The notes under the pieces were generated by a model. The model made no database searches. It had not been told where the DNA came from and saw only the letters and a list, made by a program, of their open reading frames with translations. Below are positions 21,001 to 57,219 of a DNA stretch of 64,000 nucleotides, piece by piece. The stretch lies in NCBI GenBank assembly GCA_013239625.1, contig MU056905.1, forward strand, positions 2,129,967 to 2,193,966, in the 5' to 3' direction. Numbering within the stretch: position 1 is the stretch's first letter; the number at the start of each line of letters is the position of its first letter. This DNA is from Lama guanicoe (Eukaryota). The position numbers were made by a program, and so were the translations under genes.

Positions 21001-24000
21001 GGTCCTAAAAATCACCCTGAAGAAAACTTTAATGCTGGCATATGAATCACATATTTCATATTCAACTTGATATAATTTGGATTCACAGAACATTTACCTA
21101 CCTTCCATACTCAGGGTAAAAACACAGAGGGGAGCTTTGAGAAGGGACGCTGGGACACACTCCCATCACACTGATCTATGACTCAGAGTCTCCTCAGGGT
21201 TTGGCATGGGAGCCCCTAAATGGCTGGCATGAGAACTAGAAGAATCCCTGCCAGGGATGCCAAGGAAGGGATTCCTGGCTTAGATGGGTGGTCAACTGCC
21301 TGATTTCAGGACCCCTTCTTTTTTATGCTGGGGTGACACTGAGTTTACTGGCTCTGCAGGAGCTGTCCCAGATCCAGACCCACATCAGCGATACATCTGT
21401 GGTCCTGTCCATGGACAACAACCGCAGCCTGGACCTGGACAGCATCATCGCCGAGGTCAAAGCGCAGTACGAGGACATCGCCAACCTCTGCCGGGCAGAG
21501 GCTGAGTCTTGGTACCAAACCAAGGTGAGTATGAGCACCTCCGTGAGAGGCTCCAAGGCTAGTTCTCTGAAGCCCCAGATCATCATCTAACCACTAGCCA
21601 TAAGCCCCGGGAAGTGTGACCATTTCCGTTTCTTTCAACTTGGCAGAAGAGTCTTTGATGCTATGAAAACTTAGCTTGAAATGCGCATGGAAACCTGGAT
21701 ACACATGCACACTGATATGTGGTCAGTCCATGCTGGGTGCTCAAATGGACACCACCCCCTTACTAAGTGGTTGGGGGCTGGGTGAGACTCTGAAACAACC
21801 AAGAAACAGTCATAAAGCTGTTTCTAACGGGCGTGTTTATTCAGTATATGTTTACAGAACTCTTGCAACATGCTAAGCAGGGTTCCAGAGTTCTGAATGA
21901 ATAAACTGCCAAAGAAACCCAAGGTCTGGGAGGCCATGAAGTGAATGAACAGTCACAGACGGGAAAAAGACAGCATTAATAAAACGCTTCCAAGAAAGGG
22001 TGGACTTTCAGTCTGTCTTGGAAGCAGCAAGGGACGAAAGATTGTCAAGGACTAGGGAGAGGTTTAAGGCTGAGCAAGCAGCCCTGTGGGGCTGGAAGGT
22101 AGACATGAGCACTTTGCTGAGCAAGAGAATTTGTAGTGAGAAGAGGGAGGTTGGGATGCCCATAGAGAGCCACTGTCCAGAGGTGCAAATGGCCAGAAGG
22201 TTTAGACTTTGGAGGGGTGGAGTAGCCGGGATGGTCTAACCCATGAGATCAGTTCTCTGCCAAATGTAGATGATTTTCCAGGGCAGCTGCTCGCCTATAA
22301 GCTGGCTCCCTTCCTTGCCTTGCTCTGGGCACTGCCTTAGTCCCTACCACTGCAACCTCCTAGAAAGGAAGCAGGGTGTCAGGAGCCAGGGGTGCACAGG
22401 GCAGAGGCAGAGGCAGAGGCAGCCCCTTGACAGTGAGTGGAGGTGGGATGCGCTTTACCACAGGGTAAATGATTCCTTTTGTTGACGAGGCCCTTGTTCC
22501 CTTTAACTGTGCATATCTAGAAACCAAGAAGCTGAGCTATTCAGCACTTTCAAAACTGGACAGATCTTCACTCAGGCAGGGGTTCCTCTTCCTTTGAGAA
22601 AGGTGGTTTTCTCCAGTCTGAGGAGACAGGATGCATTTATTCCTCCTGAATGAGTATGTCCTGGATCCGCACCATTAGACAGAGAGCCACTGAGATGGAG
22701 GATTCTGTTACAAAGTCTTCAGGACGAGGTCCTCTATAGCCTGGGCTCCATCCAACACCATCACCCTCCATCTCCCTATTTCCCCAGTACTGGCGTCTGG
22801 GGGAAAATTCTTGGTCGCAACTGGTCTGGATGTACACCTCATGACCAAGAACTCCCCAAGGACAGTTACCAAGCCACCCCTGATCCCTAGAGCTTTCCAC
22901 ACTCCTTCCTGTCCCAGGGGGCTTCACACACAGGCCATTTCCCTTGTCTGGAATAGTCTCCCCTAAGCCAATCACTTAGGTCACTCCTTCAGCACACGGC
23001 TCGAGCATCTCCACCCCTGAAAGGACTTCCCTGACCATTGCCCGCTACTTCCATATCTAGGTCAGATTCCTTTATCACACTCTCATAGGCCCCAGCTAAC
23101 TTCCTAAGGGACACTTGTCTCAGTCTGGAACTATAAATTCGATAATATGCTGACTTGACTATTGTTTATCTCTCCCAATAAACTATAAAACAAGAAAAGC
23201 AGGGGTCTGATTATGCTCTTGTGATATTCCCAGAGCCTGGGACATGGCTGGCAAGTAGATGGACTCAAGAAATGAGCGAGGGGAGGGGATAGCTCAGTGG
23301 TAGAGCGCGTGCTTAACATGCATGAAGTGCTGGGTTCAATCCCCAGTACCTACATTTAAGATAATAAATACTCCCCTGCCCCTGAAAAAAAGAAAAGAAA
23401 AGAAATGAGCAAGGGAATGTGTGGATGATGAGTGAATGGATGGCCCGCTCGGGGCACTGAGGGCCAGGCTGTGCACACAGGAAGTGCCCACGTCAGCACT
23501 GTACGGGGTGACTGACTCTGTTCTGGTTCTGGTTCTGTCAGTACGAGGAGCTGCAGGTCACAGCGGGCCGGCACGACGATGATCTCCGCAACACCAAGCA
23601 TGAGATCTCCGAGATGAACAGGATGATCCAGAGGCTGAGAGCCGAGATCGACAGCGTCAAGAAGCAGGTAAATTCTGGCAGGACCGAGCGCTCCCCACAC
23701 ACTCATTTTTTCCAGGTCAATTTGCCACCCTTACAGGACTCCTACCCAAGAAGCACCACACCTCCAGGGGCTATCAGTAAGGCTCATGGCTTTCTCCTTT
23801 CTTTACAGTGCTCCAGCCTGCAAACAGCCATCGCCGATGCAGAACAGCGCGGAGAACTGGCCCTCAAGGATGCTCGGGCCAAGCTGATGGACCTGGAGGA
23901 GGCCCTGCAGAAGGCCAAACAGGACATGGCGAGGCTGCTGAGGGAGTACCAGGAGCTGATGAACGTCAAGCTGGCCCTGGACGTGGAGATCGCCACCTAC

Positions 24001-27000
24001 CGCAAACTACTGGAGGGCGAGGAGTGCAGGTGAGGGCAGACGCACCAACTCCACCCCCGCTGTCTCGGCATTCCGAGGTTACTGCAGGCCCCTCCTTGCC
24101 TGGAAAAAGGAGGAAAATGTAGGTGGAATTGGGCTGTGAGAAAGAATACAGGTGCAATTTCTTTCCAGGTAGTAAATCATTATCAAATTCCCATATTTGA
24201 GGTACAAACTACTTTTAGCACCACATAGAAATCTAGACCCTGATCTGATCTAAACAATCAAATTCTATCAAAGGAGAAATCTGGTCACATGGCAGGTCTG
24301 GATGTATGGTATGAAAGACTGGACTGAAGATAAACTAGGCTTTGGGCTTTGAGGTCTACCACTAACCAGCCACGTAAGCTTAGGAAAGTCAGTGTCTCCT
24401 CTCTGGCCTTCAATTTCTTCAGTGATGGAATAGAGAGGCCAGGTCACATGATCCCCAAAGCTCAATGAGAACCTTGTGCTCTGCCAATTACCAGCTGTGT
24501 GACCAAGGACAAATTACTTGACCTCTCCATTCCTCACCTGTAAAGTGGGGATGACCATCGTTTCTATCTCATGTCACTAAGAAGGTTAAAGTGAGGGACT
24601 ACACATGAAGCTCTGAGAAAATGCACGGGACACAACAAATGGTCAATAAATGTTAGCTATCTTTCGATTTTGTGGCCAAAGACGTGGGCTTTGGAGTCCA
24701 ATGCATTTGACTTCAAATCCAGCTTTGTGATCACGAGCAAGTTAATTAATCTCTGACCTCCAATTTCTCCATCTGTAAAACCAAGATAATAATACCTCCT
24801 TAATGGTGTTGTTGAGAGAATTAAGTGCCATAATGTCGGTAACAGGTAGGCAGCTCTCTTTAAGATCCTAAGTGTATGATTATGAATGAATGCCACTTCT
24901 GTCCTCAAGATGCTAAAGCAAAATTACTCTAGTTGCTTCAACAATGATAGACTGATTATTGCTATTGTTACACGTATGACTCAGACTCGTCTCCACACCT
25001 GTTAATAACCTCAGTGCGTGACAATAGCCCATTGTTGAAAAAGAGATCTTGTTCGATGACAGCCCTGCCTTTCCAACTGACACTAGTGTACGCTTAGTTT
25101 TAATTTTCTTAAGGTGACTACCCAGTTTACACCAAAAATGTGTTTCTGAAATTACAAGTTTTACTCCTATGAACCTCAAACTCCGCATGATTTCATTCAT
25201 TAGTTTGTAATTTTTACTACTACCGGTATTTAAATAATTTCAAACCCATGACTTCCACAGTAACAATAATTAAGGGGTTTTTTTTTAGTGCATTTAAAAC
25301 AATTGCCAAAATGTCTTTTCAAATGCCCACAAGCTGCTGGATGCTACAGTAACCTTCCTTCTTCCCCTCCTCCCAATCAGGCTGAGTGGAGAGGGTGTTT
25401 CTCCAGTTAACATCTGTGAGTATGACATTTGGAGTGTACGTGCCCGGGGGCTGCCGAGGTGGTGGGCATGCTGGAGGGTGGTGGGGATGCGTGGGCCATT
25501 GGAGGGCATCCCACCGATGGAGTTCATTTTGAGCACTTTCGAGGCTCTGAATTGGTTAAAAAGAACTGCATTAGGAGAGAATCTTTAATGTCACAATTCT
25601 TACCTCTCTGCAAATGAGACGATGCCACAGAGGGAGCAATGGTAAGGTTGCTGTAACACCTCCGCACTGGTTTGGAAGGACCCTGGCTGCACCTCACCTC
25701 CCAGAATTCCACACCTTTCTTGCAGGGGTTGCAAGTCTAGCTCAGAGATGAGTGCTCGCTGCAGGCAGGATTTATGAAAACTGCCATCTGCCCTCAGCCT
25801 TTGGAGGGAGCCTTCGCACTGGGCACTAGAGCACTGTCAATTAGGCGCCCCTTCCTGGAGAAGCCCTGCTGCTCAGCTTAATTTGACAGAGTGTAACTGT
25901 AGTTACCAAGGATTTCCAGGCAGTGGGAGCTTCGTAAAACCTGGCAGTTGGGTGTAGCTACTCAGACACAGGAGAAGCATTAGTTTGCAGGCTGGTAAGA
26001 GCACCAGTCATCGCTTACAGAGCTCAGTGCTGGCACCATGAGGCCAAGAGAGGACTCTTCCAGCTCACACTCTGCAAGTGAGTTCATTTCTCTTTATGCG
26101 TGATTCACCAAAGCCATTGATTATATTAACCCTAGACTCTAGAAGGCAGATCCCTCTGAACCACCCAGGGGTCCTGCTTCCCTGAGGTCTTTGTCTAGTG
26201 GCTCCAGAGACCCTCAAAGCTAGTTTTGGGAATGGAGGACATAACCTCTAAAGTTTCCTCTGTCTTGACAGTACCTAAAAGTCTGTATTTCATAAGGTCA
26301 CCACAACACAGTACCGCAAACTGGGTGGCTTAAACCAACAGAAATGTATTGTCTCACAGTTCTGGAGGCCAGAAATCCAAAACTGGGCTGTCAACAGGGC
26401 CCTGCTCTCTCTAAACCTGTACGGAGAACCCTTCCTTGCCTCTTCCCAGCGTCTGGTGGTGCTGCCAGTTCCTCCATCACTCCAGTCTCTGTCTCTGTGG
26501 TCATGTGGCCATTCCCCTGCCTCTGTCTTCATGGACATCATCCCTCTTCTAACAAGGACGCTGGTCACACTGGATTGGGGCCCACCCTAATAATTTTATC
26601 TTAACCTGATTACATCTCCGTGGTCTTATTTCCAAATAAGGTCACATGACAGGTAGTGAGGATCAGGACTTCAACCCACCCTTTGGGAGGACACAGTTCA
26701 TCCCACAACAGAGCCCATTTTTCGTTTTAACTTTCCTTCTGAAGAGCCGGAGGGAGGGTACTAGATGTTTAAGGTGATGGGTGGTTATGAAAGTTAGGAA
26801 AAGAGCGGGTTGGCGGGAGGAAAGGGGCAGAGCTGGCTGGCTGGCCAGCAGGTCACCTGTCAATGGGTCGGTCAAAAATATTCCAGCCCCGCTCTGGGAT
26901 TCAGAGCATAGACCAGGGGACACAAAGGGAAACCCTACTATGAGCTTCCAGAAGGAGGGGAGACACCAGAGCCAGGCCCTCAGAGGCAAGCGAGGACAGA

Positions 27001-27549
27001 GCAGCAGGGGAGAGTGCGGGGGAACCAAAGGAGAAGGCAGGTGGACAGCTTCCCAGAGGAGAGACGTCCCCAGTAGGTTCTGGGAGGAAAAGAGAGGCCC
27101 AAGAAGCAGAGAGGAGGCAGGAAGCCGTTCTGGGCTGGGAGAATGCGGGGCGCTGGGGCACAGGGCAGTGACCTCACCAAGTGGGCGGGAGAGCGGGAAG
27201 AAGGGAAACCACCCGCCCGCACCCCAGCGGACTTCGGGGCACTGGCCCTGATGCCCCAAGTGTCCTTTCTCCTGCCCTTGATCCTGACCACGTCTCCTCT
27301 CTTCCGGCAGCTGTGGTCACCTCCACCGTCTCCAGTGGCTACGGCGGTGGCAGCGGCATTGGAAGCGGAAGCCTGGGCCTTGGTGGGGGCAGCAGCTTCT
27401 CCTTCAGCACCAGTGGCGGGCACAGCCTGGGGGCGGGCCTGGGGGGCGCTGGCTTCAGTGCCTGTAGCAACCGGGCCGTCGGGGGCAGTGGCTCCAGCGT
27501 CAAGCTTGTCTCCACCACGTCCTCCAGCCGGAAAAGCTACAAGCACTAA
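18070..27549 (+). CDS. KRT75: Keratin 75 (K6hf), 543 aa. join(18070-18543,19073-19287,20217-20277,20624-20719,21360-21524,23542-23667,23809-24029,25381-25415,27311-27549)
   Basis: Head [26 protein letters not shown]; rod motifs [26 protein letters not shown] and [18 protein letters not shown]; e8 [13 protein letters not shown]; tail SSSRKSYKH. All introns are GT-AG; exon sizes 474/215/61/96/165/126/221/35/239 sum to 1632 nt in frame. It sits next to a KRT6 locus, as in the known cluster order. Confidence 0.96.
23278..23399 (+). mobile_element. tRNA-derived SINE (Vic-1-like) nested in an L2 remnant (about 22970-23445), KRT75 intron 5
   Basis: GGGGATAGCTCAGTGGTAGAGCGCGTGCTTAACATGCATGAAGTGCTGGGTTCAATCCCC; TSD AAGAAATGAGC at 23267 and 23400. 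Confidence 0.9.
24335..24850 (+). mobile_element. Three adjacent MIR remnants in KRT75 intron 7
   Basis: Repeated MIR core, e.g. GCTGTGTGACC...TTCCTCACCTGTAAAGTGGGGATGA and TTTCTCCATCTGTAAAA...GTTGTTGAGAGAATTAAGTG. Confidence 0.7.
26284..26710 (-). mobile_element. MaLR solo LTR (MLT1-like) in KRT75 intron 8
   Basis: TG...CA ends; AAACTGGGTGGCTTAAACCAACAGAAATGTATTGTCTCACAGTTCTGGAGGCCAGAAATCC; TATTTCCAAATAAGGTCACA. Confidence 0.88.
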
Positions 27550-29591: not shown

Positions 29592-29668
29592 CTTTGATCT
29601 TCTCTGGCCAAGCCCAGTTCTTGGAAGGGATAAAAGTCAAGGAGAGGAGGGGAAAGCGAGACTTTGAA
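29592..29668 (+). promoter_or_regulatory. KRT90 core promoter: TATA-like GATAAAA (29629-29635) flanked by two TCF/LEF motifs, CTTTGAT (29592-29598) and CTTTGAA (29662-29668)
   Basis: Direct motif matches; TATA-like box about 97 bp upstream of CCCACCATG. Confidence 0.65.
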
Positions 29669-29725: not shown

Positions 29726-32700
29726 ATGACTCAACGATCCTCCATCACCATCAAGTCAGGGGGCACTCGGAAATTCAGTGCATCCTCAGCTAGCCTCCTT
29801 CCAGGCTGCCGCGCCAATTTCAGCTCTGTCTCCATGTCCCAGGGCAGGAAGAGCTTTGGGGGTGGCTTTGGAGGTGGTTTCGGGACCAGGAGCCTCCACA
29901 GCTTTGGGGGTAGTAAGAGGATCTCCATCGGTGGGAGCTACCGCTCCGGCCAGGCCAGCTTCGGAGGTGCTGGCTATGGGCTGGGTCTTGGGGGCATTGG
30001 GTACAGGGTAGGGGGAGCCAGCAGTGGCTTTGGATTTGGAGGTGGGATGATATGTGGCGCTGGAGGCATCCAGGAGGTCACTGCCAACCAAAGCCTCCTG
30101 ACCCCTCTTCACCTGGAGATCGATCCGTCCCTCCAGCGGGTGCGGACGGAGGAGAAAGAGCAGATCAAGACCCTCAACAACAAGTTTGCCTCCTTCATCG
30201 ACAAGGTGAGGGGCCAGTGGGGTCCCTACCAGGAAAGCGGCTGACACCCAGGGGGGTCTCTGCTTTCTGTGTTCCTCTGAAGTCTTGGGGGTTGAGAAGA
30301 CTGCCGACAGGGTAGAGGACAAAGTGATTTCTTACTTTGTTGAGATGAGAGAACTGTCCATCTCCAGACTCTAGAGCTGTCTGACCCACAGTAAGAACTT
30401 TGCCCTCTTGATGGATAGTGATCTTGTACTTGGCTTAAAATTAGACAGTGAAAAAGAATCAGTTTGGAAGGCAGGAGATAAAGGAAGGAAAGGTTCCAAG
30501 TTCAGCTCACAGAAATGGGCTGGGGTATGTTTTCCTGCCATTTGACAGGGACAAGGCCTGGGCAGCGTCTCTAGTGATTCAGGTGTGGTTGGCGGGGGGC
30601 ATGCTCAGTCTTTCAGAATTCCTTTTGGTGGGAGGAGAGGTCTCCCTGCTGTTGGTCTAGTGTCCTAGGGATCTTCCCAGTTCCAGCGGAAGAAACAGTC
30701 TAATTTACACCACCTCCAGTTCACACCTGAACCGGTTGGTTTTCCCAGGGAAGAACAAGTTCAAGGATCCTGGATCATTCAGGCTCCATACCTGGAGTCT
30801 GGAAGAAATAGCACTAAACCAAAGAAAAAGAAAAAGAAAGAAAGAAAGAAGAATGTCAGGGACGGAGGGCAAGTAGCCCAGGATCCATCCTCAGCTCTCC
30901 TGCTAGGAGCATCCCTAAATTCTTGGGCCTCGGTTGGGTTGGACAGATGGACTCTAAGGTCCTCTTGCAGATCTAACAGGACATGAAATTCCTCATCATT
31001 TGGACCTAGACCTTTGAAAGTATAAAGTTAACCAAAGGTACTGGTGAGGACTTCATCACTCATGCCCCACAGTCAACCTGGTGTTTGCACCAACAGATGT
31101 GAGATTTCCAGGAGTCCAGTTCTTCAGGGAAGGATGTGGGCCCTGCCTTTCCTGGGTTCATCTGGAGGGGTCCTGGGGAATGAGGGGATGGGGCTGGGGA
31201 GGACTTGGAGCCAGGACAAGGAAAGAGGAAGTAGGGAGCGGGGAGTGGGGTGCGTTTGTTACAGACCCTCTGCAGGCACACAGCCAAAGTCTTGGAGGCT
31301 CTGTTTTTCCATTCTCTGAGGCTGTGTGTCATTCCAGCTACTCCCAACAGAAGGATTTGTTTAGGCAGAAAGGTTTTGTGTATTCCCAAGTCTACCTCCC
31401 GGACTGAGGAGCAAATAAATGCAATTCAAGAAAACCAGATTAGTAGCACAGGACCACAGGGACCTAAGAGAGCTGAGAAAAGAAGGGGCTTGCCCAAGGC
31501 CATACAGCAGTGAGGGACATGGCTGGGATTGTGCCCAGGCCCCCTCAAGACAACTCTAGAGTGACCCATCCCAGCATTCCTGGACTGGTGAGTCCAGATT
31601 CTAGGTCTGGAAAAATCATGTTGGAAAGAAAATGAATCCAATTTTCTGCCAAGACCCTCCTGCCCATTTAACAGGAAACAAAATCTCAGTAACGTGGTCA
31701 AGTATCCTTCCCTTCAGCTACTGCACATCAACATGGTTTTGTGTATTTAGACAGTTTCCAGCCTCTATGGCCCTACTTACTGACCCATCTTCAAACCAAG
31801 CCACTGCCTGTCTCCCAGGCTCATTGCACCAACACTGGCTTGGCTTTAAGTTCCGGTCTTCTTCCAGACTCAAGACAAAGGGGAGGAGCCTGACACCTGG
31901 ACTTTGAGGTCTTGCAGGACCCCTGCAATGTTGAGGGTCCTGTATCTCAGAGCCCTCCAGGAGACTGATGCTGCAGGGAAGTGCTAACAGTCTCTTATCT
32001 CCGGCTGGGGCAGGTGCGGTTCCTGGAACAGCAGAACAAGGTCCTGGAGACCAAATGGAGCCTGTTGCAGGAACATAAGACCACCAGGGCCAACATCGAG
32101 CCCATGTTTGAAGCCTACATCAGCAACCTGAGGCGGCAGCTGGACAGCCTGGGTGGAGAGCGCTTGAGGCTGGAGACAGAGCTGAAGAGCATGCAGGATG
32201 TGGTGGAGGACTTCAAGATCAAGTGAGTGGGGGCTCAGCCCTGAGGTTCCAGGGGAGGCTCTGCTCTCCGGAAGTGCCCAGTCCAGTGGGAAATAGGGCA
32301 CACACTTTGGGACTGGAGGTGGAATCAGAAAAAGAACTGGGACCCTGAAGTCAAGAACATTGAGGCTTTGGGAAGGGGCTGGGGTTAGATGGTAACTAAC
32401 ACGGGCACAAAGGGCATGATACATGCAACGTGGTCAGCTCTGCAGATGAGGAAATGTAAGGCTCTGAGATAGCAAATGACTCATCCAAGTTTATACAAGT
32501 AGCAGCTCATGAGTTATGAACTCATAGAATCTCATACTCACATTTGTTTGGCTCCTTCCCATTGCTGACTTCACAAGTTCATGCATCCACCACAGCCCTG
32601 GCTAAGGTTGGGGAATGAAAGAAAAGGAGGCCTATTTGCTGCCTTCTCCCTGGAACTTCACACACACACACACACCACTAAATATAATGGTATGTTTCTA

Positions 32701-35700
32701 CTATAGATATGAGTAATTTCTCATTTATATTGTTTTAATTTATTTCTAATGTTCTTGGTCCAAACAAAATAAGTGACTTGATAAGTTTTGGTTGCTGTTT
32801 GTATAATGGAGTAAGAATCCAGGTTTTAGAGTTGTGCTAACATGATAGCCACTAGCTACTTAAATTTAAACCAAGTAAAGTTATATAAAATTTTAAATTC
32901 AGCCCCTTAATGACACTAGCCACATTTCAAGTGCTTAGGTGCCACATGTGACTAGTGGGTCCCATAGCAGATGCAGATACAGAGCATTTCCATCACCACA
33001 GAAAGTTTTGTTGAACAGCACTATAGAATAGAGCACCAGATTTAGAAACTTGGTTCAACCACTCACTAGCTCAATGACCTAAAGAAAACTAACCTCTCTA
33101 AGCTCCAGTGCCTTTGTCTGCTAAAGGGGATATTAATAGTACCCATCTCATAGAGGCATTGAGACTGTTAAATCAAAACGTGCATATAAAGTGCTTGGTA
33201 GGCTGCCCACTGTCTGACACATAATAAGCTGCTGTTAATACGTGTTAGCTATTTTATTGTATTGATGATTAGGTATATGTGTGTACGGATGCAAACATAG
33301 ACAAGAGAAGCAGATGGGTAATTTATAACAGCATGCAAAGGTGGGGTAACAGTGATTCAATCCAAGAGGACTTCCTGGAGGAGGAGGTAAAAGCTCAAGG
33401 TTGAGTGGGGGATGTGTCGAAGAGCCCTCTCCTGGTTAATGGACAGCAACGTTCCAATGGCAGGTGTCTAAGAGCCCTGTGCAGGGCCACATGATTCTTG
33501 CCCTCTGGCAGGGGGACTATGAACTGGGAAACACAGGACAATTGCATGAAGTCAGGTGAAGAAAAGATGGTCAGATTTAATGAAAAGACACCTCAAGGAA
33601 ACAATAAGGCGAGCAAGATCAGTTTCCCAGAGCGCTGGGGAGGAGGCACAGTACTGAAGAGTCAGTGAGTCAGTGGCAGAAAGAGGTTTCTTAGATACTT
33701 CTGGACAGTAGAGGCAATAAAAATAAAGGTGGAGATTTTGGATGTATAGTCGTGTGGGATAGTACTTTGTAGTTCTAAAAACATAACGAGAAGCCGATTC
33801 ATAGGTGGGAAAGAGCCTCTGAGAGGTTAAGGGACCTGCCCTGGGTTATTCAGCTAGTAGGTGGAGGAGACAAGCCCAAACCACAGCCGTCAGGAGCTGC
33901 CAAGAGGGTGGGATTGGCTGATGCTTAGAAGGCAGGGTTACCTAAAGCAGATGTGAAACTTCCTTCCCAGAGATCAGAGGGTGAGGGACAGTGGGGACTG
34001 GGGTTGCTGCCTAGGGGCAAATTGAAAATGAGGAAACTTGGTGGAGAGGGTAAGTGGGAGGTGTCTTATTAACCTGAGGGCTGCTTCCCAGGCTGCGGGT
34101 CAATGGCTGAGAACAGGACAGTGAGGCAACGTGAGGATGCCCCGGGGTGCAGGCGCCAGCCGAGGCCTGGGCCGCCGGCCTTACTGCTCTCTCTTCCCCC
34201 TCCCATGGCCCTTGTCTGGCTTGGGGTGAGACCATGGGGTAAGAGGAAGCAGCACACGCCTTCACGGGACCTCTGTGGAGCAGAGCTGTGAGAAAGCAAC
34301 CTCACAGGGAACGAGAGGTGGTTCTGTTTTGCTGTTGCTTTGCATTTGGGTTTTGTCTGCGCAGCGTGGATGTTTGATGGATTTGGGATTGGGGGGCCCA
34401 CGAGAGCTATGCTGTAGCAGCACGTTTTCCAAGTCTTCCCTGGAAACCCACCTACAGCCCCTGCCTTGGCCCTCACGCCCAGAATCCCTCGCTCTGAACA
34501 CCCATCCGCTCCTTCATCCTTCCCGCAGGTACGAAGAAGAAATCAACAGGCGCACAGTGGTGGAGAATGAGTTTGTGGTGCTCAAGAAGGTGAGGGGACA
34601 GGGATGCTCCCTCCTGACTCTTGGACCCTGGCAGCCCCTTCTGGGAGTGACAGCTGCCACTTAAGCCAGAGGCCCTGTATACATGGCTTCATTTAATTTG
34701 CATGATCTTAAAAGCAGGTCTTACTTTAGAAGTGAAAAAATTCAGGCTCAGGGAGGTTAAATCGGTTGTCCAAGGTTACCCAGATCATCAGAAGCGAGTC
34801 CAGATCCAGGACACCAAAGTCTGAGCTGTAAATCACTACACCAGTTCTCTCCCCACGTGGGTCTGGTGCAGGGAGAGGCGAAGCAACATGAGCCTTGTGC
34901 GGAGCTGAGTCTCCAGGACCTCAGGTCAGGCTTAGGGGACAGGCATGGGACGGGGACCGACTCCAGGAGTTGTGGACCTTCCTGCTCAATGAGGATGTGC
35001 AGAGGGAGGGAGAGGGCCCGCCCCAGAGCTAATCTGGAGGAAGAGGAAAAACAGAGCAGCAGTGTGTGGAGGGGAGGAAGGGGCAGGGTGTGAGGAGGAG
35101 GGGAAGCCTGGGGGTGGGGGAGGGGGCTGGGAGAATCAGGAGGCAGCGGAGGACCGGGATGGGTCGTCTTCACCGTGGGAAGGTGACATGTCTTTCCACG
35201 TGGTACCAGCTGATAAGCAGGTGGGCATCCTTGAGTGCCCTGGTCCTCACACAGTTTGGACCCCCCTGGACGTTTCACTCCATACACAGCCTGGGATAGG
35301 GAAACACTCTCATCCCTGGCAACTAAAGTTCTCCAGCCAAACTCACAGACGGAGGGTCTGGCTAGCCCAGGATGGGTGGGACTCGGAGTGACAGCATGTT
35401 CTGTGCCCAGGACGTGGACGCCGCCTACATGAGCAAGGTGGAGCTGGAGGCCAAGGTGGAAGCCTTGATGGATGAGATCAACTTTCTGAGGGTGTTCTAC
35501 GATGCGGTAAGCCATGCCAGGTGTTCCCCCAAGAAGGGCTGGAGGTTGGGGGCCTCAGCTGGGCATAGAGGCCACCAGCCCCTTCCAAGGCCTCCTTTCT
35601 ACTCCTCACCCAAGTTGGAATTGATGGAGCAGATACCACTTCCCCTACCAAAGGAGAACAGAGGTTTCCCAGGGCAGCTGGTGGATCAGGCAAGGTGAGA

Positions 35701-38700
35701 AACTGAAGCATGTGCTGTGGGCCTGACAAAAGAACTGCCTGCCGTTGAATGACGTGCAGTTCCATAGAGCTGAGCAACCTGGCACCCAGCCCAGCTCAGA
35801 TGTATTACCTGCTGCTCTTCCTAGAGTGGAGGCAATTACGCAAATCAAGTGGCAATTGATGAGCCCTCAGGTGCTTCTAGAAGCACCCAATGCAAATGCC
35901 TGGCTCTCCTGTAGACACATTTTGCTGTGAACCTCTGGACACCCGACCCTGCCCGGGGCTGCAGGCACAGCACTGGGCAAACACAGTCAAGGCCCTAAGG
36001 TCTGGGAGCTTCCGTGATGGGAGGGGAGACAGGTGGTACAGGGAATCAAGTCAGGATACCATTTCAGGCATGATAGGGGCGATGGAGAAAACGCCAACAG
36101 GAAGCAGCAGCAGGCAGATGGTGGGTGATAACCTGAAGGAACTGGGGTTCCAGAAGTGCCAGGAGGAGGCCCAGGTGGCTGGAGTAGAGACAGAGTGAGG
36201 CGGCAGATGGGATGAGCATGTCGGGGAGCGGGTGGGGGACAGGATGCACTGTGTGCCACAGGCAAACCTGGTAAGGACAGGTGATCCGCCCTTGGGGTAC
36301 ACGTCTGATGCCCAGCAGAAGTTGGTCATATTCCAGGAGCAGGAACATGGGATCTGCATCTGTAGACAGCTTCAATGATCATCCCACCCACTCGGGGCAA
36401 AAAAGACATCATTTTCTCTGCTCATTCACTTCAGTGCCAGGGTGGTGTTGGCTCCCAATTCCGAACAGCAAGCCTGTGGGCTGAGATCTCCCCACCCCAC
36501 CCACTGCCAGCTTGGTCAGCTACCAGGAAAAACTATTTCAGAAAAACCAATTGCAACACAGCAACAATAAAATAATCATTTCTTGAAGCAGGAAGTGCAT
36601 GAACCAATTGTTAATGAGGAAAGGAAAGGGATATTTAGATTTGGGCTTTGGATCAGTGGTTCTCAAATTTTACAGCTCGTCAGAATCTTCTAGAAGTCTT
36701 GTTCGAGCACCAATTCTCAGGAAGTCTAGGGTGGGGCCCAAAATGTTGCATTTCAATCAAGTTCCCTGGTGATGCCGATGTTGCTGCTCTGAGGATCACA
36801 TTTGGGGAAACACCACCACCCTACATGATCCCGGAAAGTGATCACTGACAAACTAATCGTGGGTTTTCTGTTTCAAAACCCACCTTATGTGTATTTAATG
36901 CTCACAGAAATCACGGGCAGCAGCACTCTGACCAGCCCCGCTAGACTCAGAGACGCTAGCCAACCTGCCTGGCAGAGCCAACGCTTGATTTGTCCAGTCT
37001 TTCTGCTGTTTCGAGCTGGTTTCCACTTCCCATCCCCGAGGAGCAGGGAGGAGCAACGTTGGGAAATGGGGCTGGAACACAGCACAGCTTTCTGGCTCTT
37101 TCTGGCTCAGATTTCTTTCACAAGATGATTACTTTATTTGGTGAGAAAGGCTGCGTTTTCTCAGAACGTGAGCCGTTGTGGCACTGACAGGTCGCGGCAA
37201 TGTGCACTGAGAATGGGAGTAATTTCTGGAGAAATTCCCTTGGCTGCTGCTCCCTCTGTGCAGATGGGGCGGCAACAGAGGACGGGCGTAAACCCAGTGA
37301 CCTCCCTGATGTCCTTCCCAGCCCTTTCAGACCTAAGCAGGCTGGCAGGCCGACAGTGTGAGTGGGGCCCTCTATGCCAGAGCCTGGGGGCTGGTCACAG
37401 CCTCCCCCCCCCACACACACATGCTCACACATGCACACGCACGCACACACCCTGCCTCAGCTCTCCTGTCTCGGTCCTCGCAGGAGCTGGCTCAACTTCA
37501 GGCCCAGATCTCTGAAACCAGTGTGGTCCTGTCCATGGACAACAACCGCAAGCTGGACCTGGACAGCATCATCGCTGAGGTCAAGGCCCAGTACGAGGAC
37601 ATCGCCAACCGCAGCCGGGCTGAGGCTGAGTCCTGGTACCAGATCAAGGTGAGACATCGAGGTCAAGTTTGTGAAACAGTCATAAAGAACTGAGATTTCA
37701 AAGGCAAATTTAAGAAGAGCCTTGTCCTCCAGTCTGATGGGGTCAAAGGGATCTGAGTTCAGTTCAGGGCTTACCCTCTGTTCTGAATACTCTTCAGGCA
37801 GCACCGTCAGAACCTGGGGGAACAGCCAGACAAAGGCAGGAGGTGGTCAGACCTTCTGCCACAGGGAGGATGGACATAACTCCACTGCCCTACAGAGGAG
37901 AGGTGCGGGACTGCTGGATAGTCCCGGCCACCAGTGCCAGCAGGAACGAGAGAGGGAGGGTGGGAACAAGAGGCAGGTTTAGCTTCCTGAATCAGGAGAG
38001 GAGAACCAGCTGGGGCCAAGGGGCTGGGGCAAAGGCTGGCTAGGGGTCACACAAGGAGAGTTTCCAAGTTAGAGCGAACACGCTGAGCTGGGGAGTCCTG
38101 GGGATATGAGATGTGTTGCCAAGGAAAACAAATAGGAAAGAGCTTTAAAATCCGAGAGTGACAGGAACCCTGGCATGATGCGGAGTTTGTGAGAGTGAGC
38201 TACGTGGTGGTGAAGAAGGGGAATGAAAGATGGGATACAGGAAGAAGGGTCCGGCTATAGGGTGGAGCCTGCAGATATGGAGAGTGAGGGGCAGCGCCAA
38301 GAGGCAGTGGGCTGGACTTGATGGAGAGAGCGGGGTGGGGTGCGGGGGTGCACAGGGACATGCCTCCAAGCAGCGCATCGGAAGCCTGCTGAGCCCTGGG
38401 AAACCCCCACCTCCTCTCCTCTGGCCTGACCATCCCGCCTCCTGCCTCCCCTTCCCCGCAGTACGAGGAGCTGCAGCGGTCCGCCGGCCGGCACGGGGAC
38501 GTCCTCCGCTCCACCAAGATGGAGATCTCCGAGCTGAACCGGGTGATGCAGAGGCTGCGCTCTGAGATTGACAACGTGAAGAAGCAGGTAGGGCTGAGCT
38601 CCCAGCAGCCACCCCATCCCTCCCTGCTTCTAGGCAGACCTGGCCTGGTTTTAACACAGCCCCGGCAGAGAGAAGCCCCGCACCCCCAGCCGAGTGACCG

Positions 38701-41351
38701 TCCAGGAGTGTAAACGTGCAGTCTCCCCACCCACCAGGGACATCAGGACCTTCCTTCTGAGATCTGTGCAACATCAGCTCCTCTAGGAAAGGTGCTGTCC
38801 TCTGGAGGTGTGCATGGCAAAGCTCTGACTTGCTTTACTTACCCACAATCCAGAGAAGTTCAGCATTGAAAGGGACCCCAAACCATTTCTCCATCCCCTC
38901 TAATCCTCAGCTTATCCAAGGCAAACAGACATGAATCTTAGCTTTCAAGATGATGAAAGCTTCTTGGCATGAAATTTCAGAAAATCCTTCCATATTTTTA
39001 ACCTAAAACCCACATCTGACTGCTTTCCCTGTGTCCTCCCGGCAGTGTGCCGCGCTCCAGNNNNNNNNNNNNNNNNNNNNNNNNNNNNNNNNNNNNNNNN
39101 NNNNNNNNNNNNNNNNNNNNNNNNNNNNNNNNNNNNNNNNNNNNNNNNNNNNNNNNNNNNNNNNNNNNNNNNNNNNNNNNNNNNNNNNNNNNNNNNNNNN
39201 NNNNNNNNNNNNNNNNNNNNNNNNNNNNNNNNNNNNNNNNNNNNNNNNNNNNNNNNNNNNNNNNNNNNNNNNNNNNNNCTCCTCCTATCACGGTTCAGAT
39301 AGATGCCACCAGAGCACTGGAGCGATGCCACAGAGGCCGAGAGCCCCACGGTGCCAGGCCCCAGATAGAAAGGCCCAGGGCAGAAACACGATTGAAATGC
39401 AGATGCTCCCTGCAGGCAACCTGTGGTTGCAGGCGCTCCCATAGCTCCTGGGGCACCCAGGGCAGGGACCAGGGTGAAAGGCTTCAGGGAGAGGTGTCCC
39501 TGACTACCTGGAAGGCCATAAACAGGGCCATTTCTACCCAGGCCTTGTGACAAATGAGGCCACACTCAGAATGAGGTTCAGGGGCTCCATATTTGCCCAG
39601 AGATGCCAACCATCTGACGGTCCCTCTAGACATCGTGAGCATGGGATCCTCTTCCCATTTCTCTGTGTATCTTGACCTGATCTCTCTTCTGGATGTCCCC
39701 TCCCAGATGCACACCAGCTTCCTACAGCTTACGAGATGAATGAAATGCTTGTTAAGCACAGTGCCTGGCACACAGCCAGCCCTCTGTGCTGATAGCTTTA
39801 AATACAAAGAACCCAAGGCTCTCTAACTTCTCAGCGAATGAAATGTCTCTTTCTTTCCCCACCTGCAACAGACTCACTGGAGAAGGTGTCGGAACCGTGA
39901 ATATCTGTGAGTAAATGTCTTGAGATGGCAGGAAAGTGGGCGACAAAACGGAAGCTAAAGGCATCACCAACAAGGATTTGGTGACTAGATTGCGAGCAGG
40001 CTGGGGCGAGACATCATTGAGGCCGTTTGGGGGGCTCTGTGGAGACCCCCCTCTCCTTTGGCCCTTCCTCCCAGTGGGCTCGAGAGAGAGTCATGGTGAC
40101 ATCCACCCCAGAGGTCCCAGTGACATCACGTGTCCACAGGAACGGACTCCAACCTGGTCTCAGAGGACCCTATTTGTGGGACAGGACTACGCACAGAGCA
40201 GTGGGTCCCCCGTCTGAGTGCCTGATTCCTCAGCTAGTTCCCGCAGGAATTCAAACCTGCAGAGCTAATAAGAGGCTGTTAAACAGCCTAAATCTGAAGA
40301 CCTGTGTTTAGAATTGAAGCCAATTAATTGAACAAGTAGAGCAGGGAAGCTTGGCCTGAGGTCCCAGGGGGAAAGCCAGGGGGAGTCATCCTGTAGGAGG
40401 ACCCAGACCAGCAGGCTCAGGTGGCATCCGCGGGGCACTGAGCCCTGGGCTCAGGAAGTGGAGTTCCCTTGGGCGCCACGTGAGTCAGACCACATGAAGG
40501 AGGCTGGTAAACCAGGACGGGGGAGGGCTTGAAACCAATGAATACAGGGAACACCGATGCTGCAACTGGAGAGACAGATACTGAGAAGGGAGGTGGAAGA
40601 GGCGTCTTCAGATGTTTGGCAGGCTGCGAAGAGCTGCATCCCGGGACAGTGAGCTCCGATTCCCTGAGAGGATTTGCAACTAAGCCACTGGCTCTCAGTG
40701 ATGCAGTAGTGGGGATTCCAACCCAGAGGCAGGTTCACCTGGGTGGCCTTCGGGCCCCTCCCATATGGGGGCCTGTGATCCCCACACAGTTTATGGGGCC
40801 TCGCATTCCATCCAGCATTAGAGCCCGGGGTAGGGATGAAGGGCAAACAGCACAGAGACCCAAAGTGCTGGGTTCTGGCAGATGTGACCTTGGCATGCTA
40901 CTTGTACCTGTGCTTCCTCCCCTATAAGATGGGGGTGATCAGAATAAGGGCGTCCTCTCAGGCCTGTGGAGGAGACCAGTGTGGTCACAGCTGGGAGCGT
41001 TCTGACACTTGCCATGCCCTGTGTACATCGAGGCAGCGTGTGACGGGGACAGCGAGGGTCCTCGTGGAGCGCTGTGGGAGGGAGGCGGCCAGGGTAGGAG
41101 ACCCGAGCTGGGGAGGAGCCTGCCAGTGTGCTCTGTGTCTTCTCTCCACAGCCGTGGTCTCCTCCTCCGGGGGCTCAGGCTACAGCGGGGGTGGTGGCCT
41201 CTGCATGACGGGGGGCAGCTATGGCAGTGGCCTCAGCTACGGGGGCAGCGGCGCCAGCTTCAGCTCCACCAGCGGCCGCAGCATGAGCGCCAGCAGCTCC
41301 AGCATGCGCATCATCTCCAAGACCTCGTCCACCAAGAGTTACAGGAGCTAA
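29726..41351 (+). CDS. KRT90: Type II keratin KRT90/KRT124, about 530 aa. join(29726-30205,32014-32222,34529-34589,35411-35506,37484-37648,38462-38587,39046-~39266 [mostly N gap],39872-39906,41152-41351)
   Basis: Gly/Ser-rich head [24 protein letters not shown]; intact rod motifs; canonical exon sizes and GT-AG sites; no stop or frameshift in sequenced exons; tail [19 protein letters not shown]. The name comes from synteny between KRT75 and KRT82, where human has KRT90P (formerly KRT124P). Only the first 15 nt of exon 7 (CAALQ) are sequenced. Confidence 0.87.
32830..33022 (-). mobile_element. MER3-like hAT-Charlie DNA transposon, followed by a MIR (about 33030-33255)
   Basis: CACTAGCCACATTTCAAGTGCT...CCACATGTGACTAGTGG...CATTTCCATCACCACAGAAAGTT. 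Confidence 0.8.
36654..36815 (+). mobile_element. MER5A-like hAT-Charlie element
   Basis: CAGTGGTTCTCAAA...GTCTAGGGTGGGGCCC...TTGCATTT...AAGTTCCCTGGTGATGCCGATG. Confidence 0.8.
39061..39278. other. Assembly gap (218 N) covering most of KRT90 exon 7
   Basis: N run. Confidence 1.
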
Positions 41352-42948
41352 AGGGCCCCCTGCCCCGCTGCCTGACCCCAAGACCCCCTGATTCCCAGCC
41401 CTAAAGCCTGCTGCTTTGCTGACCACCCCCTGCACAGAATCAACAGGAGGCACAGGGAGCGGGAAGTGGTCTGTGAGTTCCAAGGCCATCTTGTCCATCT
41501 CTCTGCCTCCAGACAAGTCCCCACAAAGGTACCTCACTCACTTTTCAGCCAAGAGCCCTCCAGGTTCCACAAGCATCCATTCCAACTGCCATGTGCCCAA
41601 GACCGGGGCTGGGACATTCTCTTCAGTAGCCTCCTACTGTCTGACCCAGATCCCCTGCAACCACAGTCCTCCCTGGGGCTGCTTATAACAGACCTTGGTG
41701 CCCCCAAAGAAGTTGAGTGCAGTCCGGGCCAGTGCTTTCCCGCCACACACAGAACATCTGCCCTGCAGGATCCCTCAGACCAGGAAATGTTGCAAACCCT
41801 GCCCACATATTCCCTCCTCACCTCTGTCCTCCTTGTCCCCTCCAGGCACCCAGCCATATCCCCCAATAACTCCCATCATCAGGATATTTGAATGAGAAAT
41901 CAACATCCTTCAAAATATTACCAGCTTGATTATTCATAGTAGATCAAAATAATGTTATCAAGAACTCCGAAGTTCTCCATGGCCCGGGGCTACATTACGT
42001 GAGAGTTCAAAGTCAAATTCCTTCCACATCTGCCCATTTAAGCCAATATTAGAATTTCTGTCCCACAGAGAATGTCCTGGTGATGAGGGGGAGGGAAGCA
42101 GGCTCACGTGAGGCTGCAGGAAACGCCTGCAACCAGCACATCAGGCACCCAGTTAGCCTGTATCAGAACTGCCCTGGGAAATGGTCCTCCCCCGAAGAAG
42201 CCCCTGAGCTCAAGAGTTTTCTCTTTCCTTGGTGCTAGCCACATCTCTCTTCTGGGAAGTTTTCTTTCCTTTCTAGCCAGCCCTTTTCACCTCCTCCCTC
42301 ACCCTCAGTCCCCTTTCTGGTCATCCTCTACAGCCGCGTGTGTCTCCTCTCTCAGTTGCCCTCCCTTCCTCTCCTCACCCTTATTTCTCTTTTCTTCCTC
42401 CCCTACTCATCCATTGGCAATACATTTCCTGCTCTCAATCTCCCGACCTGTCTTTTTCTATCTCCCTGTCTCTGTAATGTCTAAGATGTGGATTTGCCTG
42501 TGCCCAGCCCTGGCCAGAGGCAAAGCTCTTTAAGGCAGGCTGCCAGATTCCCTTTCCACGGGGAGGGCGCAGGATAGCAGACCGGGAAGAGAGAGGGAGT
42601 TCTTCCTTTGGTGTTTCTCCTTGCTCTGAGAGGGGCGTTGCTCGGCCCCTTGAAGAAGCAGAGGTGGGGTGGCGGTGGAATAAGGATGCGAGGAGGCACA
42701 GGGATCTTTTTGAGTGGCCTTTAAGGGTGATTTCCCCATTGAGTCTGAAGAGTTGTAAGCCCTCAAGACACCTGCCATGTACTCAAGACCAAAACACATT
42801 CCAAAAGCATACAGACAGGCTGCCATGCTGCTGACCTGAAGACAGGAGAGTTCACGGTTTCAAAAAAAAAAAGTCACTCCCGCTCAGTCAGTTCAAACCC
42901 GTCCGAACTGCCTGCTCCTTGTGCTTGCCCACTCCCTGAAATCGCTTC

Positions 42949-42954
42949 AATAAA
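42949..42954 (+). terminator. KRT90 poly(A) signal
   Basis: First AATAAA I find after the stop at 41351, followed by GT-rich GAGTCTGTGT; implies a 3' UTR of about 1.6 kb. Confidence 0.6.
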
Positions 42955-43940
42955 CTGTCACCGAGCTTTCAAGGTCTTGACTGAGTCTGTGTCCCATCCC
43001 ACACTCAGAGGACGACCCTGGAAATGGAGTTCTTCGGGAGCAGGGCCCTTCCACCCACAACGCTTACTCCAGAGCAGGATGAGAATCCCCTTCCGCTGCC
43101 ACCGAGCAATAGGAGCCCCACGCCTCTTCTGCCTCCCACCCTCGCCCGTGGTCTCTCGTCACACCCCTTACCCCTCCAAGCCCCAGTGTTCCCTCCCCAG
43201 GACTGGGACCCAAAGTCAAGACGATGTAAAAAGGGACAATGTGAAATATCACAGTTAGACTGAGAGCTCTCGAGCACAAGAAACATTTGTGTTCCAGTCT
43301 CCGAATCCAGAGGTGGGGAAGCCAGGAAACACAATGTGTATTGACAGCAGACCCCTGATTCCTAACCCCGGCTACTCCCCAGAGCAGTAGGGCATGATGA
43401 CATCAGAAAGGATGGGGTTGGATCCCAGCCTACCCCGGACAAGCTGTGTGGCTTGGGAGTTACTTAAACCCTCTGCTCTTCACTCTCCCTATCTGTAAAA
43501 TAAAAGCTACGTCATGGTGTTGTCATAAGAACTGAATGAGATAATGGCTGTATAGTTCAGGGTGGTCCCAAACGTGGCAAACACCCAATAGATGTTACTA
43601 TTATCGTGTTGACTCACTTTTGACCCGGGAGAAGGTCACAGTGTGGAAGGGAAAGACCAGTCAGCCACAGCAGTGGTTTCACTAATGGGACTGATGGAAA
43701 GGCGGAGAGGCGACAGAGGGAGGAGGTGTTTCAAGCATCTCCAAAGAGCTGTGACCTGGGTGCCAGGGAGGGAGCCTGTAACCTGCATCTCCCTGAACAA
43801 TTCCTGAGAGCAATGACCATCCCCAGGGATGCCCTCGGGCAAGAGCAGACTCAGCCTACCTCAGGGAGGCTCAGGACAGGGTGGGAAGACAGGCGAGGGA
43901 GCCCCCCTAATGGCTGACATCAGTGCATCTTTAGGGGGCC

Positions 43941-45364: not shown

Positions 45365-48300
45365 ATGTCGTGCCGCTCCTTCCAGCAGGGCTCCAGAGGT
45401 GGCTTCAGCTCATGCTCAGCTGTCCTCCCCCAGATCATCACCCACTATGCAGTGAGCAAGGGGCCTTGCAGGGTCGGGGGTGGTGGCGGGGGTCTCCGTG
45501 CCCTGGGCTGCCTCGGCTCCCGGAGCCTGTGCAATGTGGGCTTCGGGAGGCCCCGGGTCGCCTCCAGGGGTGGCCTGCCTGGCTTCGGGTACAGAGTGGG
45601 CGCCACCTGCGGGCCTCCTGCCTGCATCACCCCTGTCACCATCAATGAGAGCCTGCTGGTCCCACTGGAGCTGGAGATCGACCCGACAGTGCAGAGGGTG
45701 AAAAGGGACGAGAAGGAGCAGATCAAGTGCCTCAATAACCGCTTTGCGGCCTTCATCAACAAGGTAAGGGGCGGGCCCGGGGCTCCAGGGCCGTGGGAGG
45801 CAGGAAGAACCTTGTGTCCGCTCCAGAGGGGCAGGGAGAGTGAGACTGCAGAGAAGCCGCTGTGGATCCACCGGCCTCCCCTGTGCTCCGTGACCCCTAA
45901 TCGCTGAAAGCTGGTCAGATTAGGCTCAGCACTTGACATTTCTGCTTGCTAGTCCTTTTTTTTAACATGTCATCTCTCTCTGAATATTATCTGATAAAAT
46001 CACAAAGGGGCCTGAGATCAGACTACAAGAGGAACTTCCAGAGCAATGATAGATACTGAGAGAAGCAACCAAGAGGCAAAGACCTGTCCTCCCTGATGAG
46101 CCTTTAATGAAAGAGCTGCCTTCTGGGTGTCTGAGCTGGGGTGAGACCCTTGGGCCTGGAGGCAGGGATGGGCACTGTGACCCCAGAATTTGCCATTAGC
46201 TTAGGCCTGGGATGAGGAGAAGGTGAAACAGTCAGAGCCAGGGACACGACAGGACCATGACCAAAGTCTTACATCTGTCATTCCAGAGCCACAGCTCTGA
46301 AAGTCTTCAGGGAAGGGTGACATGCTGCCTTTGGAAGGTGCCAGACTGGCCTGTCACCCTCAGCTACCTCTGGGCCTGTCCCCACTTCCCAGGGAGATTC
46401 TTTGGGTCAGGATGCATGCCAGGGGCTGGGTCAGTGTTTCTGGTGACCCCAAGGTTTAGGACAAAGAGTCCTGGCCCGGCAGTCAGGAGAGACGGAGGCC
46501 CGGGGTTAGCTCACTCCTGACAGTTACCCTCAGGCCCTCTGCAAACCACTCACCTCCCAGTCGCAGGAACCCTGCTGCCCAGTGGGAAGGGGGTTGGTGA
46601 TGATGCGAGAATTGAAGGAGGTAATATATACAAAAGTGCTCCAAAAAAAAACTTGTTCTAGTACAGGGGAATTGTTGAACTTATTCGTTTGAAAGCTCTT
46701 TAAGTTCTGGTTGTAAACCCATTCCAACAACGTGGGCCCCAATTGTCTGCTACGTCAACCACATTCTATGAGGCTGGGGGCATCCTGGCGATGGGGCCGT
46801 TGACCAGAAGCAGGGCAACATGGTGAGATGCAAAATCCCAGGGCGCAGGCTGGAGACCATGTTCTCCCTGCCAGTGACCTGGGTGGCTGTGGCCAACTCA
46901 CTCAGCTTCTCCTAACCTCGGTTTCCAAGCCACGAACATGGAGGAATAGGCCAGTAGCCCTCCACATTACAGTGACAGGGACATTTTCTGGACTCAGCCA
47001 TACAGGATGGGGCAGAGTAGGTCAGAGTGCTAGGACGCAGCCTTTGATCTTCCTCCCCTGGGTGGCCCTGGGCGCTCCTGGGCCGTAATTGAGGAAACCC
47101 CAATTTCCAGTGTAATCACAGGCTTACATTAGTACGATGTACAAAATGCTTCCCATATGATCCCAAGTAAGAGCTTTAGGCAGCAAAGTGAGGGCTGGAT
47201 TGGGTTGGCCCAGGTTACAGGTCTCGTGGGAGGCAGGCAGGCAGGGCTGGAAGGAGGGTCTGCTCAGTTCTCTTGGGGCAACCCTCTTTTCACCACTGCA
47301 TGTGACCGTGCGTGGAAGGTGGGGTCCCACACACTGCCGCGGGCAGGAAAGAAACAGAGACACAGAGACACAGCCGCAGGGGCCGGTCCGCACAGAGACC
47401 CTGAAAGCGCTGGCCCATCGAGCAGTGCATTGGGAGTGAGAGTGAGCGCACAGACCGATCTCACTGCCCCCACCCCTGCCCCAGCACTTTCTCTCACCAG
47501 CCGTGGTCCCCAGGGTCCCTGCCTCCCCACAACATCCTGTCCTTGGCTGCAGGTCCGGTTCCTGGAGCAGAAGAACAAGCTGCTGGAGACCAAGTGGAAC
47601 TTCATGCAGCAGCAGAGGTCCTTGCAGAGCAACATTGAGCCCATCTTTGAGGCTTACATCTGTACCCTTCAGAGGCAGCTGGACTCCTCGGCCGGGGACC
47701 GGGCCCGGCTGGAGTCAGAGCTCTGCAGCGTCCAGGATGCACTGGAAGCCTACAAGAAAAAGTGAGTTGGCTCTGCTGTCACCTGGTCGGGGACATAGGG
47801 CAAGTGACATAAACAGTCTGGGCTCCAGTTTCCCCACCTTTAAAATGGGAAGCCAGAAACTTAGTTCACCAGGTGGTAGCGCAGGTAGGTGGGATAACGT
47901 AGGCAGAGCATCCAGGGTGTCTGCCTGCTGGCACGGCAGAACCTCCAAAACTCTGAACTTGTCATCATCTGCCTTCCCACCACCCTCTTCCTCTCTTTGC
48001 GTCAAACAAGCTTTCTCCTGCATTTCTGGGCTCTACCTTATCTTCCAGCAGTCCCTTTGCAGACCCTGAACACTTCCATTTTCCTCAGCAGATCCCCAAA
48101 CCCTCCTTCTCCTCCCTTCAAGCTTCAACTCCCCTGTTCCTTCACCCTGATGAGCCTCTCTCAGTGTTTCTTCACGACATCCTGCTAATATATCCCACTC
48201 CGCAACCGCCTGTCGCAGCTGGAAGCCATCGCCCCTTCTCTCACTTCCAGGTGCTCCGTCTCCCTGTCTCCCTCCCAGTTCTTGGTGGTTAAGGGTATGT

Positions 48301-56105: not shown

Positions 56106-57219
56106 TGCAGCTCCAGAGGCTGGAAGCCCAAGGGGCAGGGCACCAGCCCCCAGCCTGGATGTTGCCCCCACCCNNNNNNNNNNNNNNNNNNNNNNNNNGA
56201 TGTTGCCCCCACCCACCCACCCACCCACCAGAGTTGAAGACAGGAATATTTCAAAATCCCACCTTCCTATACTAACCAAAGTTTTCCCTTGAGTTTACAC
56301 TGGGAGCTGCCCCATAGGTATCCTCAAGCGTCATCTTTCACTGAGGTGTGTGCAGACCCTGAACTAGACCCTGGGGTGCGGGTGGGATGCAAAGAAAAAG
56401 AACGCATCCCCGTATCCGTGGACGGCTGGCAATCAGGCCCCAGTGTGGCCAAGAGAATGGCCGCAGCCCCCAAACACTTCTCTTCCCCATGAGAAGGCCA
56501 AATGGGCACATCACAGTTCTGCTTTGTGGATTATCCCATGGAAATTTCCCCACCAAGCCAGACTCCCCTACCCCTGGTGGTTCCCCACCTGTCTTACCTC
56601 TGGCTCTCATGCGCCTAAGAAAAGTAAAGTTCTTTTAACATCCACCTCATACATGCACATTTGCAAATATCCAAAAAGAGACAACCCAGAATCCCATTCT
56701 GAATTCCAAAGCCAAGGGCCAGGATTTCAGGATCACTTAGGATCTGTCAGTGGTCATCAGCTAGCACACAGAATCAAGAGTTGGTCTTTGGGCATAGGTT
56801 TATCGGCTCAGGTGTGTTGAACTTGCACTATAGAAATCCATCTTTTCCCTGAGCTCACATTGGCAGCCAATGGCTGAGAAATGCCTATCACAAAGGCCAG
56901 GAGACATGGAATATTTCTCAACGAAGGGAGACTGACTTTATCTGTTCAAAGGGAATCAACCTAACCCCTGCCCGTGTACATAGCCACCCCTGTCCTGCTC
57001 CCTCTCGAGTTCTGCTTGCTTTGGTCTAATACGAACATGATTTCCTGGCTACAGTGATGAGGGACTGCCTCAGCGGACTTGGAGGCTCTGGTTCAGGGGC
57101 TGTGAGGAAGGAGGAGGTGCTCACCTGCCCTCCATCTCCCCGTAGTGCAGCATCTGCAGAAGCCCCACCCACCCAGGGATCCACCGTTCAGCCATGAGCC
57201 TCTGGGCACTTCTGCCCCC

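Follow-up and report, generated by a model that had tools for sequence, protein, structure and literature searches.

An open KRT90/KRT124 keratin gene in a South American camelid genome with a disrupted KRT42

The window analysed here, that is the whole 64,000-nucleotide stretch at positions 2,129,967 to 2,193,966 of the Lama guanicoe contig MU056905.1 (assembly GCA_013239625.1), carries at 29726-41351 on the forward strand a type II keratin gene, KRT90 (also designated KRT124), which sits between KRT75 and KRT82. Its exon structure, open frame, orthology and gene order were observed, as were the loss of KRT42 and KRT16 and the open rods of K14 and K17 in the same genome. Type II keratins form filaments only as dimers with a type I partner, and these filaments link desmosomes and withstand shear. 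With a probability of about 0.7, the intact KRT90 works in the camelid nail-bed epithelium and is paired there with K14 or K17, a pairing proposed in view of the broken KRT42 and KRT16 of the host; tissue and partner are assigned by analogy with mouse, horse and general keratin biology. K90 would be made in suprabasal nail-bed cells, would dimerise with K14 or K17, and its filaments would, with such a substitute partner, help to hold the nail plate to its bed. The intactness of KRT90 is in itself ordinary, since the gene is the orthologue of a described gene that is retained in many mammals and its loss in primates is the exception, and the sole part of some interest is the uncoupling of K90 from K42.

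Exon structure and open reading frame of KRT90

A putative TATA-like element, GATAAAA (29629-29635, forward strand like all features of the gene), lies 97 bases upstream of the ATG, with like elements preceding KRT75 and KRT82, and an A occupies position -3 of the start codon. Exon 1 (29726-30205, 480 nt) encodes the head, H1 and the start of coil 1A and is 99% identical to the alpaca protein XP_006203073.1. It is followed by exon 2 (32014-32222, 209 nt), exon 3 (34529-34589, 61 nt), exon 4 (35411-35506, 96 nt), exon 5 (37484-37648, 165 nt) and exon 6 (38462-38587, 126 nt, carrying the D351V change), then by exon 7 of coil 2B (39046-39266, with 15 nt visible, N from 39061 and an end placed by the 221-nt norm), exon 8 (39872-39906, 35 nt) and the coding part of exon 9 (41152-41351), which encodes a Gly/Ser tail resembling that of horse K124 and runs to a TAA. 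Exons 2-6 and 8 are bounded by AG and GT, and overall AG is present at all eight acceptors and GT at the seven visible donors, the exon 7 donor falling within the N block. Exons 3-6 and 8 have the same lengths as those of the adjacent KRT75, which are the standard type II rod lengths. No stop occurs in the 384 codons 5' of the N block or in the 77 codons 3' of it, giving 461 visible codons, and an exon 7 of 221 bases closes the frame at 530 amino acids (aa), as in the proteins of alpaca and camel. Hence, the first-pass annotation of a nine-exon type II keratin without a lesion in any sequenced exon is borne out, together with its TATA-like box and Kozak start; its poly(A) signal also exists, albeit at 42949, outside 29726-41351.

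The same annotation had treated 39061-39278 as a gap to be closed by long reads or PCR, in which a stop might reside. A genome-wide Pfam search lists at this place a stop-free Filament match covering domain positions 237-313 (231 bases, 110 bits) at C8676:2169003-2169233, which corresponds to window positions 39037-39267. Because of this match, the N block is not an assembly gap: sequence is present there and its frame is open, with openness read from the listed Filament match and not extending to substitutions or to the donor, as the letters within the block are unread. The helix termination motif at the end of coil 2B falls within the N block, where the frame is open to Filament position 313, and it is present in alpaca. 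The rod-start motif is intact in the window, and the domains PF00038 (Filament) and PF16208 (Keratin_2_head) are precomputed on the alpaca protein. When exon 1 was searched in the genome, one full-length match was obtained, the other 29 of 30 matches covering only the conserved rod start.

Orthology with horse KRT124 and mouse Krt90

A protein search with exon 1 matched 1197 proteins, of which the best 120 were examined. Scored against K90 and K75 references, 59 of these 120 were K90-like, 57 of them mammalian and two borderline reptile, and they included camelids, pig, ruminants, horse, rhinos, carnivores, pangolins, bats, moles and rodents as well as colugo, treeshrew, afrotherians, xenarthrans and marsupials. 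No primate K90 protein was found among the 59 K90-like rows of the best 120 of 1197. A fused tarsier model contains K75 followed by a decayed K90 remnant, and a fused Mus pahari model likewise has the K75-K90 order. The visible 461 residues of the window protein differ from alpaca XP_006203073.1 (530 aa) at three positions and from each of four Camelus proteins at 18, for which reason the host is, judged by these protein comparisons, a South American camelid, in line with the earlier proposal of a camelid and with the 99% identity to alpaca over exon 1. In Camelus ferus and C. bactrianus, the RefSeq K90 carries a LOW QUALITY flag yet yields a protein without gap or X, with an R421Q change in coil 2B. 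Among afrotherians, the dugong K90 protein is flagged LOW QUALITY and the rod-start motif of the Amazonian manatee K90 is altered, both species having a degraded K90 alongside a flagged K42.

A tree was built from 48 rod sequences, with the paralogues entered as gene models of this genome and 343 of 577 columns kept. Trimming to the rod was imperfect in several rows, the K85-like model is short by about 22 residues, exon 7 is missing from the K82 and K89-like rows, paralogues were named by gene order and background knowledge, and rat Kb15 rather than mouse Krt90 is among the rows. All 14 K90/K124 rows, including horse K124, rat Kb15 (NP_001008825.1) and marsupials, fall on one branch (100/99), which lies outside the K5/K6/K75/K1/K4/K71/K79 group (99/93), and the window gene is not in the K75 clade. 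On this phylogeny, KRT90 is an old therian lineage and the one-to-one orthologue of mouse Krt90 and horse KRT124, which, along with a K124-like tail, upholds the name given in the first-pass annotation. A recent duplication of KRT75, which that annotation had named as a refuting outcome and which the adjacent position and the RefSeq name could suggest, has almost no probability left to it given the separate K90 clade with marsupials in it, and was rejected on the single K90/K124 branch outside the K75 group.

The horse orthologue XP_001504447.2 (Armstrong et al. 2019, PMC6759161) has 521 aa, agreeing with KRT124 in the curated table of PMC5573215, and shares with the window gene the clade, the nine exons and a like tail, with 54 of 452 compared residues differing. 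At its C-terminus lies the epitope of the equine K124 antibody (PMC9662738), which the window tail equals at 11 of 14 positions; this antibody (K124C) also recognises the mouse protein. The tail peptide that had been proposed as unique does not serve as such, since it contains internal R and K at which trypsin would cleave, and tails of this kind are found in other mammals as well. Mouse Krt90, once called Kb15 and known from the witch nails mutant (Sundberg et al. 2022, PMC9662738), is represented in the clade by rat Kb15, with the K75-K90 order found in Mus pahari. With a mouse mutant and localisation in horse and mouse already published, KRT90 is not uncharacterised, and to call it the least characterised gene of the window is an overstatement. 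The alpaca and Camelus proteins, with three and 18 differences, are the same gene, already predicted as protein-coding and named after the wrong paralogue: RefSeq calls the former 'keratin, type II cytoskeletal 75-like' and the latter 'keratin 5(-like)', a mislabelling that had been anticipated as K75-like. The human counterpart KRT90P (formerly KRT124P) is indeed the dead orthologue, as is KRT42P of KRT42 (PMC5573215, PMC6759161); humans lost both genes, whereas the camelid lost only KRT42. The intactness of KRT90 is real but was overstated as a peculiarity, being the usual state in non-primate mammals, to judge by the 57 mammalian rows among the best 120.

In a published survey, alpaca was assigned a 'K90p pseudogene' between K75 and K82 together with intact K42 and K16 (Sun et al. 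2017, PMC5540548), and K90p was likewise listed for cow, sheep, elephant and panda, the survey having started from human queries. The present results contradict it on K90, which is open here and in alpaca, and on K42, which is broken here and apparently in alpaca too. That the camelid gene is a pseudogene, as supplement 1 of that paper has it for alpaca, could also draw on the LOW QUALITY flag of the two Camelus RefSeq entries and on the unseen letters of exon 7, but is highly improbable in the face of 461 visible codons without a lesion and an open exon 7 frame. In addition, the unflagged alpaca and dromedary models have the full 530 aa, the flagged Camelus protein shows neither gap nor X in the alignment, and the survey with its human queries also calls cow K90 dead, yet cattle has a 531-aa model. 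Names that can be corrected are therefore the RefSeq 'K75-like' and, in the 2017 table, 'K90p' and the intact 'K42'.

Disruption of KRT42 and KRT16

In horse hoof lamellae, the equivalent of the nail bed, K124 and K42 are the main keratins, with K124 confined to this tissue (PMC6759161); the first-pass annotation had likewise described horse K124 as hoof-lamellar. The presumed partner gene KRT42 was located in this genome at L019:135-7077 (C1600, reverse strand), where the start matches an equine primer and the best single-gene matches are K42. It contains three frameshifts, namely two added bases at the end of exon 1, four added in exon 5 and one missing in exon 7, with the first stop at codon 186, and an intact KRT42 that would accompany a K42-K124 pair is hence not found here. 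Both alpaca RefSeq models of KRT42 are LOW QUALITY, with traces at the same three places as the lesions of the window genome, and for this reason the damage is not a fault of one assembly and is apparently common to alpaca. In Camelus, two GenBank models (P0294, P0295) read through all three of these sites and have odd exon 4 ends. Each also has a Q-to-R change within the rod-start motif and several radical changes peculiar to its species, and K42 may be weakening in Camelus too. Loss of K42 recurs across mammals, because eight other mammal rows among the 120 listed carry the LOW QUALITY flag (two seals, a bat, a ground squirrel, two whales and two sirenians).

KRT16 (L017, C1600:3809270-3811700, reverse strand) is in heavy decay, several of its exons containing stops and shifts; K14, K17 and a K9-like gene have open rods in this genome. 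Published accounts report the absence of K90 in humans and the loss of K16 in cattle and elephant (PMC11816140, PMC8733776, PMC6367960). The horse keeps an intact 453-aa K42 and the mouse keeps K42 as well (NP_997648.2), unlike the window camelid, and the tissue has been demonstrated in horse. KRT90 and KRT42 are both pseudogenes in primates (PMC6759161). No paper on a camelid K90 retained without K42 was found in the library searched, though subscription papers or supplements (for example those of PMC6367960 and PMC6662840) may contain one. With their broken KRT42, South American camelids offer a natural case for the dependence of K124 on K42, a question relevant to hoof-lamella mechanics, laminitis and the primate double loss.

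Sequence change of K90 in the South American lineage

Among derived changes in K90, nine are common to the window and alpaca as compared to two on the Camelus branch, with three unpolarised, so that faster change on the South American branch is not significant in a relative-rate test (binomial p = 0.065). The K75 control has eight South American and nine Camelus changes (K90 versus K75, Fisher p = 0.11). Seven changes on the lineage of the window affect sites that 30 or more of 34 orthologues conserve. At residue 141, all 34 others have K, the window T and alpaca M, and site 351, V in the window, is D in 32 of 34 non-camelid orthologues. The window K90 is farther than that of dromedary from all four outgroups. 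At the same time, alpaca and dromedary rods differ at 4 of 301 positions in K90 versus 11 of 303 in K75, and the alpaca-camel K90/K75 distance ratio of 0.68-0.76 lies inside the 0.18-1.40 range of 18 pairs. This drift of K90 is a hint in the compared sequences, not a result.

A gene in early decay, orphaned when KRT42 died in the South American camelid stem, relieved of most constraint and drifting to a primate-like double loss, would account for the excess of nine over two changes, for those at the conserved sites including the K at 141, and for the greater distance to the outgroups, and the sirenians have both genes decaying; this is nonetheless unlikely, as neither p value is significant, the rod distance is smaller than that of K75, and the K90 frame stayed open here and in alpaca while KRT42 accumulated three frameshifts. 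A wider conjecture, which we hold only tentatively, would see South American camelids as a natural uncoupling of the K42-K124 pair, in which K42 died in the stem after the loss of K16, and K90 either took K14/K17 as its partner while changing faster or began to decay. If true, llamas and alpacas would represent a living half-way stage of the primate double loss, linked to a nail under little load, and would provide a ready model for which partner K124 needs.

Transcript-like contigs and probable tissue of K90

Four of 22 sequencing runs (X1, X2, X3 and X13), whose RNA nature is the guess of the tool, were aligned to window positions 39279-43400. X2 and X3, from two studies, cover 41376-42972, leaving introns 7-8 without cover, whereas X1 yielded a single contig of 151 bases and X13 nothing beyond short chance pieces. 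The X2 and X3 contigs would delimit a 3' untranslated region (UTR) of 1.6 kb (41352-42972, forward strand), in which the poly(A) signal AATAAA at 42949-42954 is the first one past the stop. Beyond 42972, a point 18 bases past AATAAA, X3 continues as 19 loose A, and as the next 20 genomic bases hold only two A, this tail is non-templated. These contigs fit a polyadenylated KRT90 transcript with a 1.6-kb UTR in a related species, probably Camelus.

The nail-bed reading draws on mouse, in which K90 is a marker of the hyponychium as well as the nail bed and a frameshift in its tail leads to degeneration of the latter, described as witch nails (PMC9662738). It draws equally on the lamellar confinement of K124 in horse, whose haired skin, coronet, tongue, oral mucosa, glabrous skin and chestnut lack it (PMC6759161). 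It is also supported by the degraded or flagged K90 of sirenians. The dugong and the Amazonian manatee are not known to bear nails. Use of camelid K90 in the padded sole or another epithelium such as skin, tongue or forestomach, instead of or besides the nail bed, would be consistent with transcript-like contigs in runs of two studies of a related species, the nail bed being in our judgement rarely sequenced, with low-level KRT124 reads in RNA-seq of dog and horse skin (PMC5573215), and with the mouse protein being present also in the hyponychium (PMC9662738). Such re-deployment is improbable, since horse K124 antibodies are negative on chestnut, glabrous skin, tongue and oral mucosa (PMC6759161) and the rod of the K9-like gene is open in this genome, points that likewise speak against the foot-pad role offered in the first-pass annotation. 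The excerpt of PMC7051995 contains nothing on nails.

Several points count against a nail-bed K90 with a substitute partner. Changes in this lineage affect conserved sites (K141T, D351V, V120A and N16K), and alpaca K90 has been called a pseudogene (Sun et al. 2017, PMC5540548 supplement 1). As the X2 and X3 contigs are 96.5-97.1% identical to the window, they come from another species, and the runs have no library record; within 39279-43400 the contigs leave coding exons 8-9 uncovered and no splice joint was seen in them. The K42-K124 pairing itself is only suggested from protein amounts in the Discussion of PMC6759161. Finally, K90 may be dispensable, because the IMPC null mouse is without a reported digit lesion (PMC9662738).

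Neighbouring keratin genes

The upstream neighbour KRT75 (18070-27549, forward strand) is open with 543 aa. Its exon 5 (21360-21524) has R325L and S326C in a conserved coil 2A stretch, at which alpaca and camels retain R and S. Downstream, KRT82 (45365-56106, forward strand), named from gene order, has exons 1-6 open and exon 7 partly N, and was placed with the hair keratins in the 48-row rod tree. Upstream of KRT75, a decayed K6-like gene at about 1830-5208 has a rod-start deletion in exon 1, is interrupted by stops and shifts further on and lacks exons 7-8, and further upstream two K6-like genes (L007 and L008) have open head and rod. Short tRNA-like repeat copies, which we take to be a camelid SINE, are present at 17132, 23283 and 44220.

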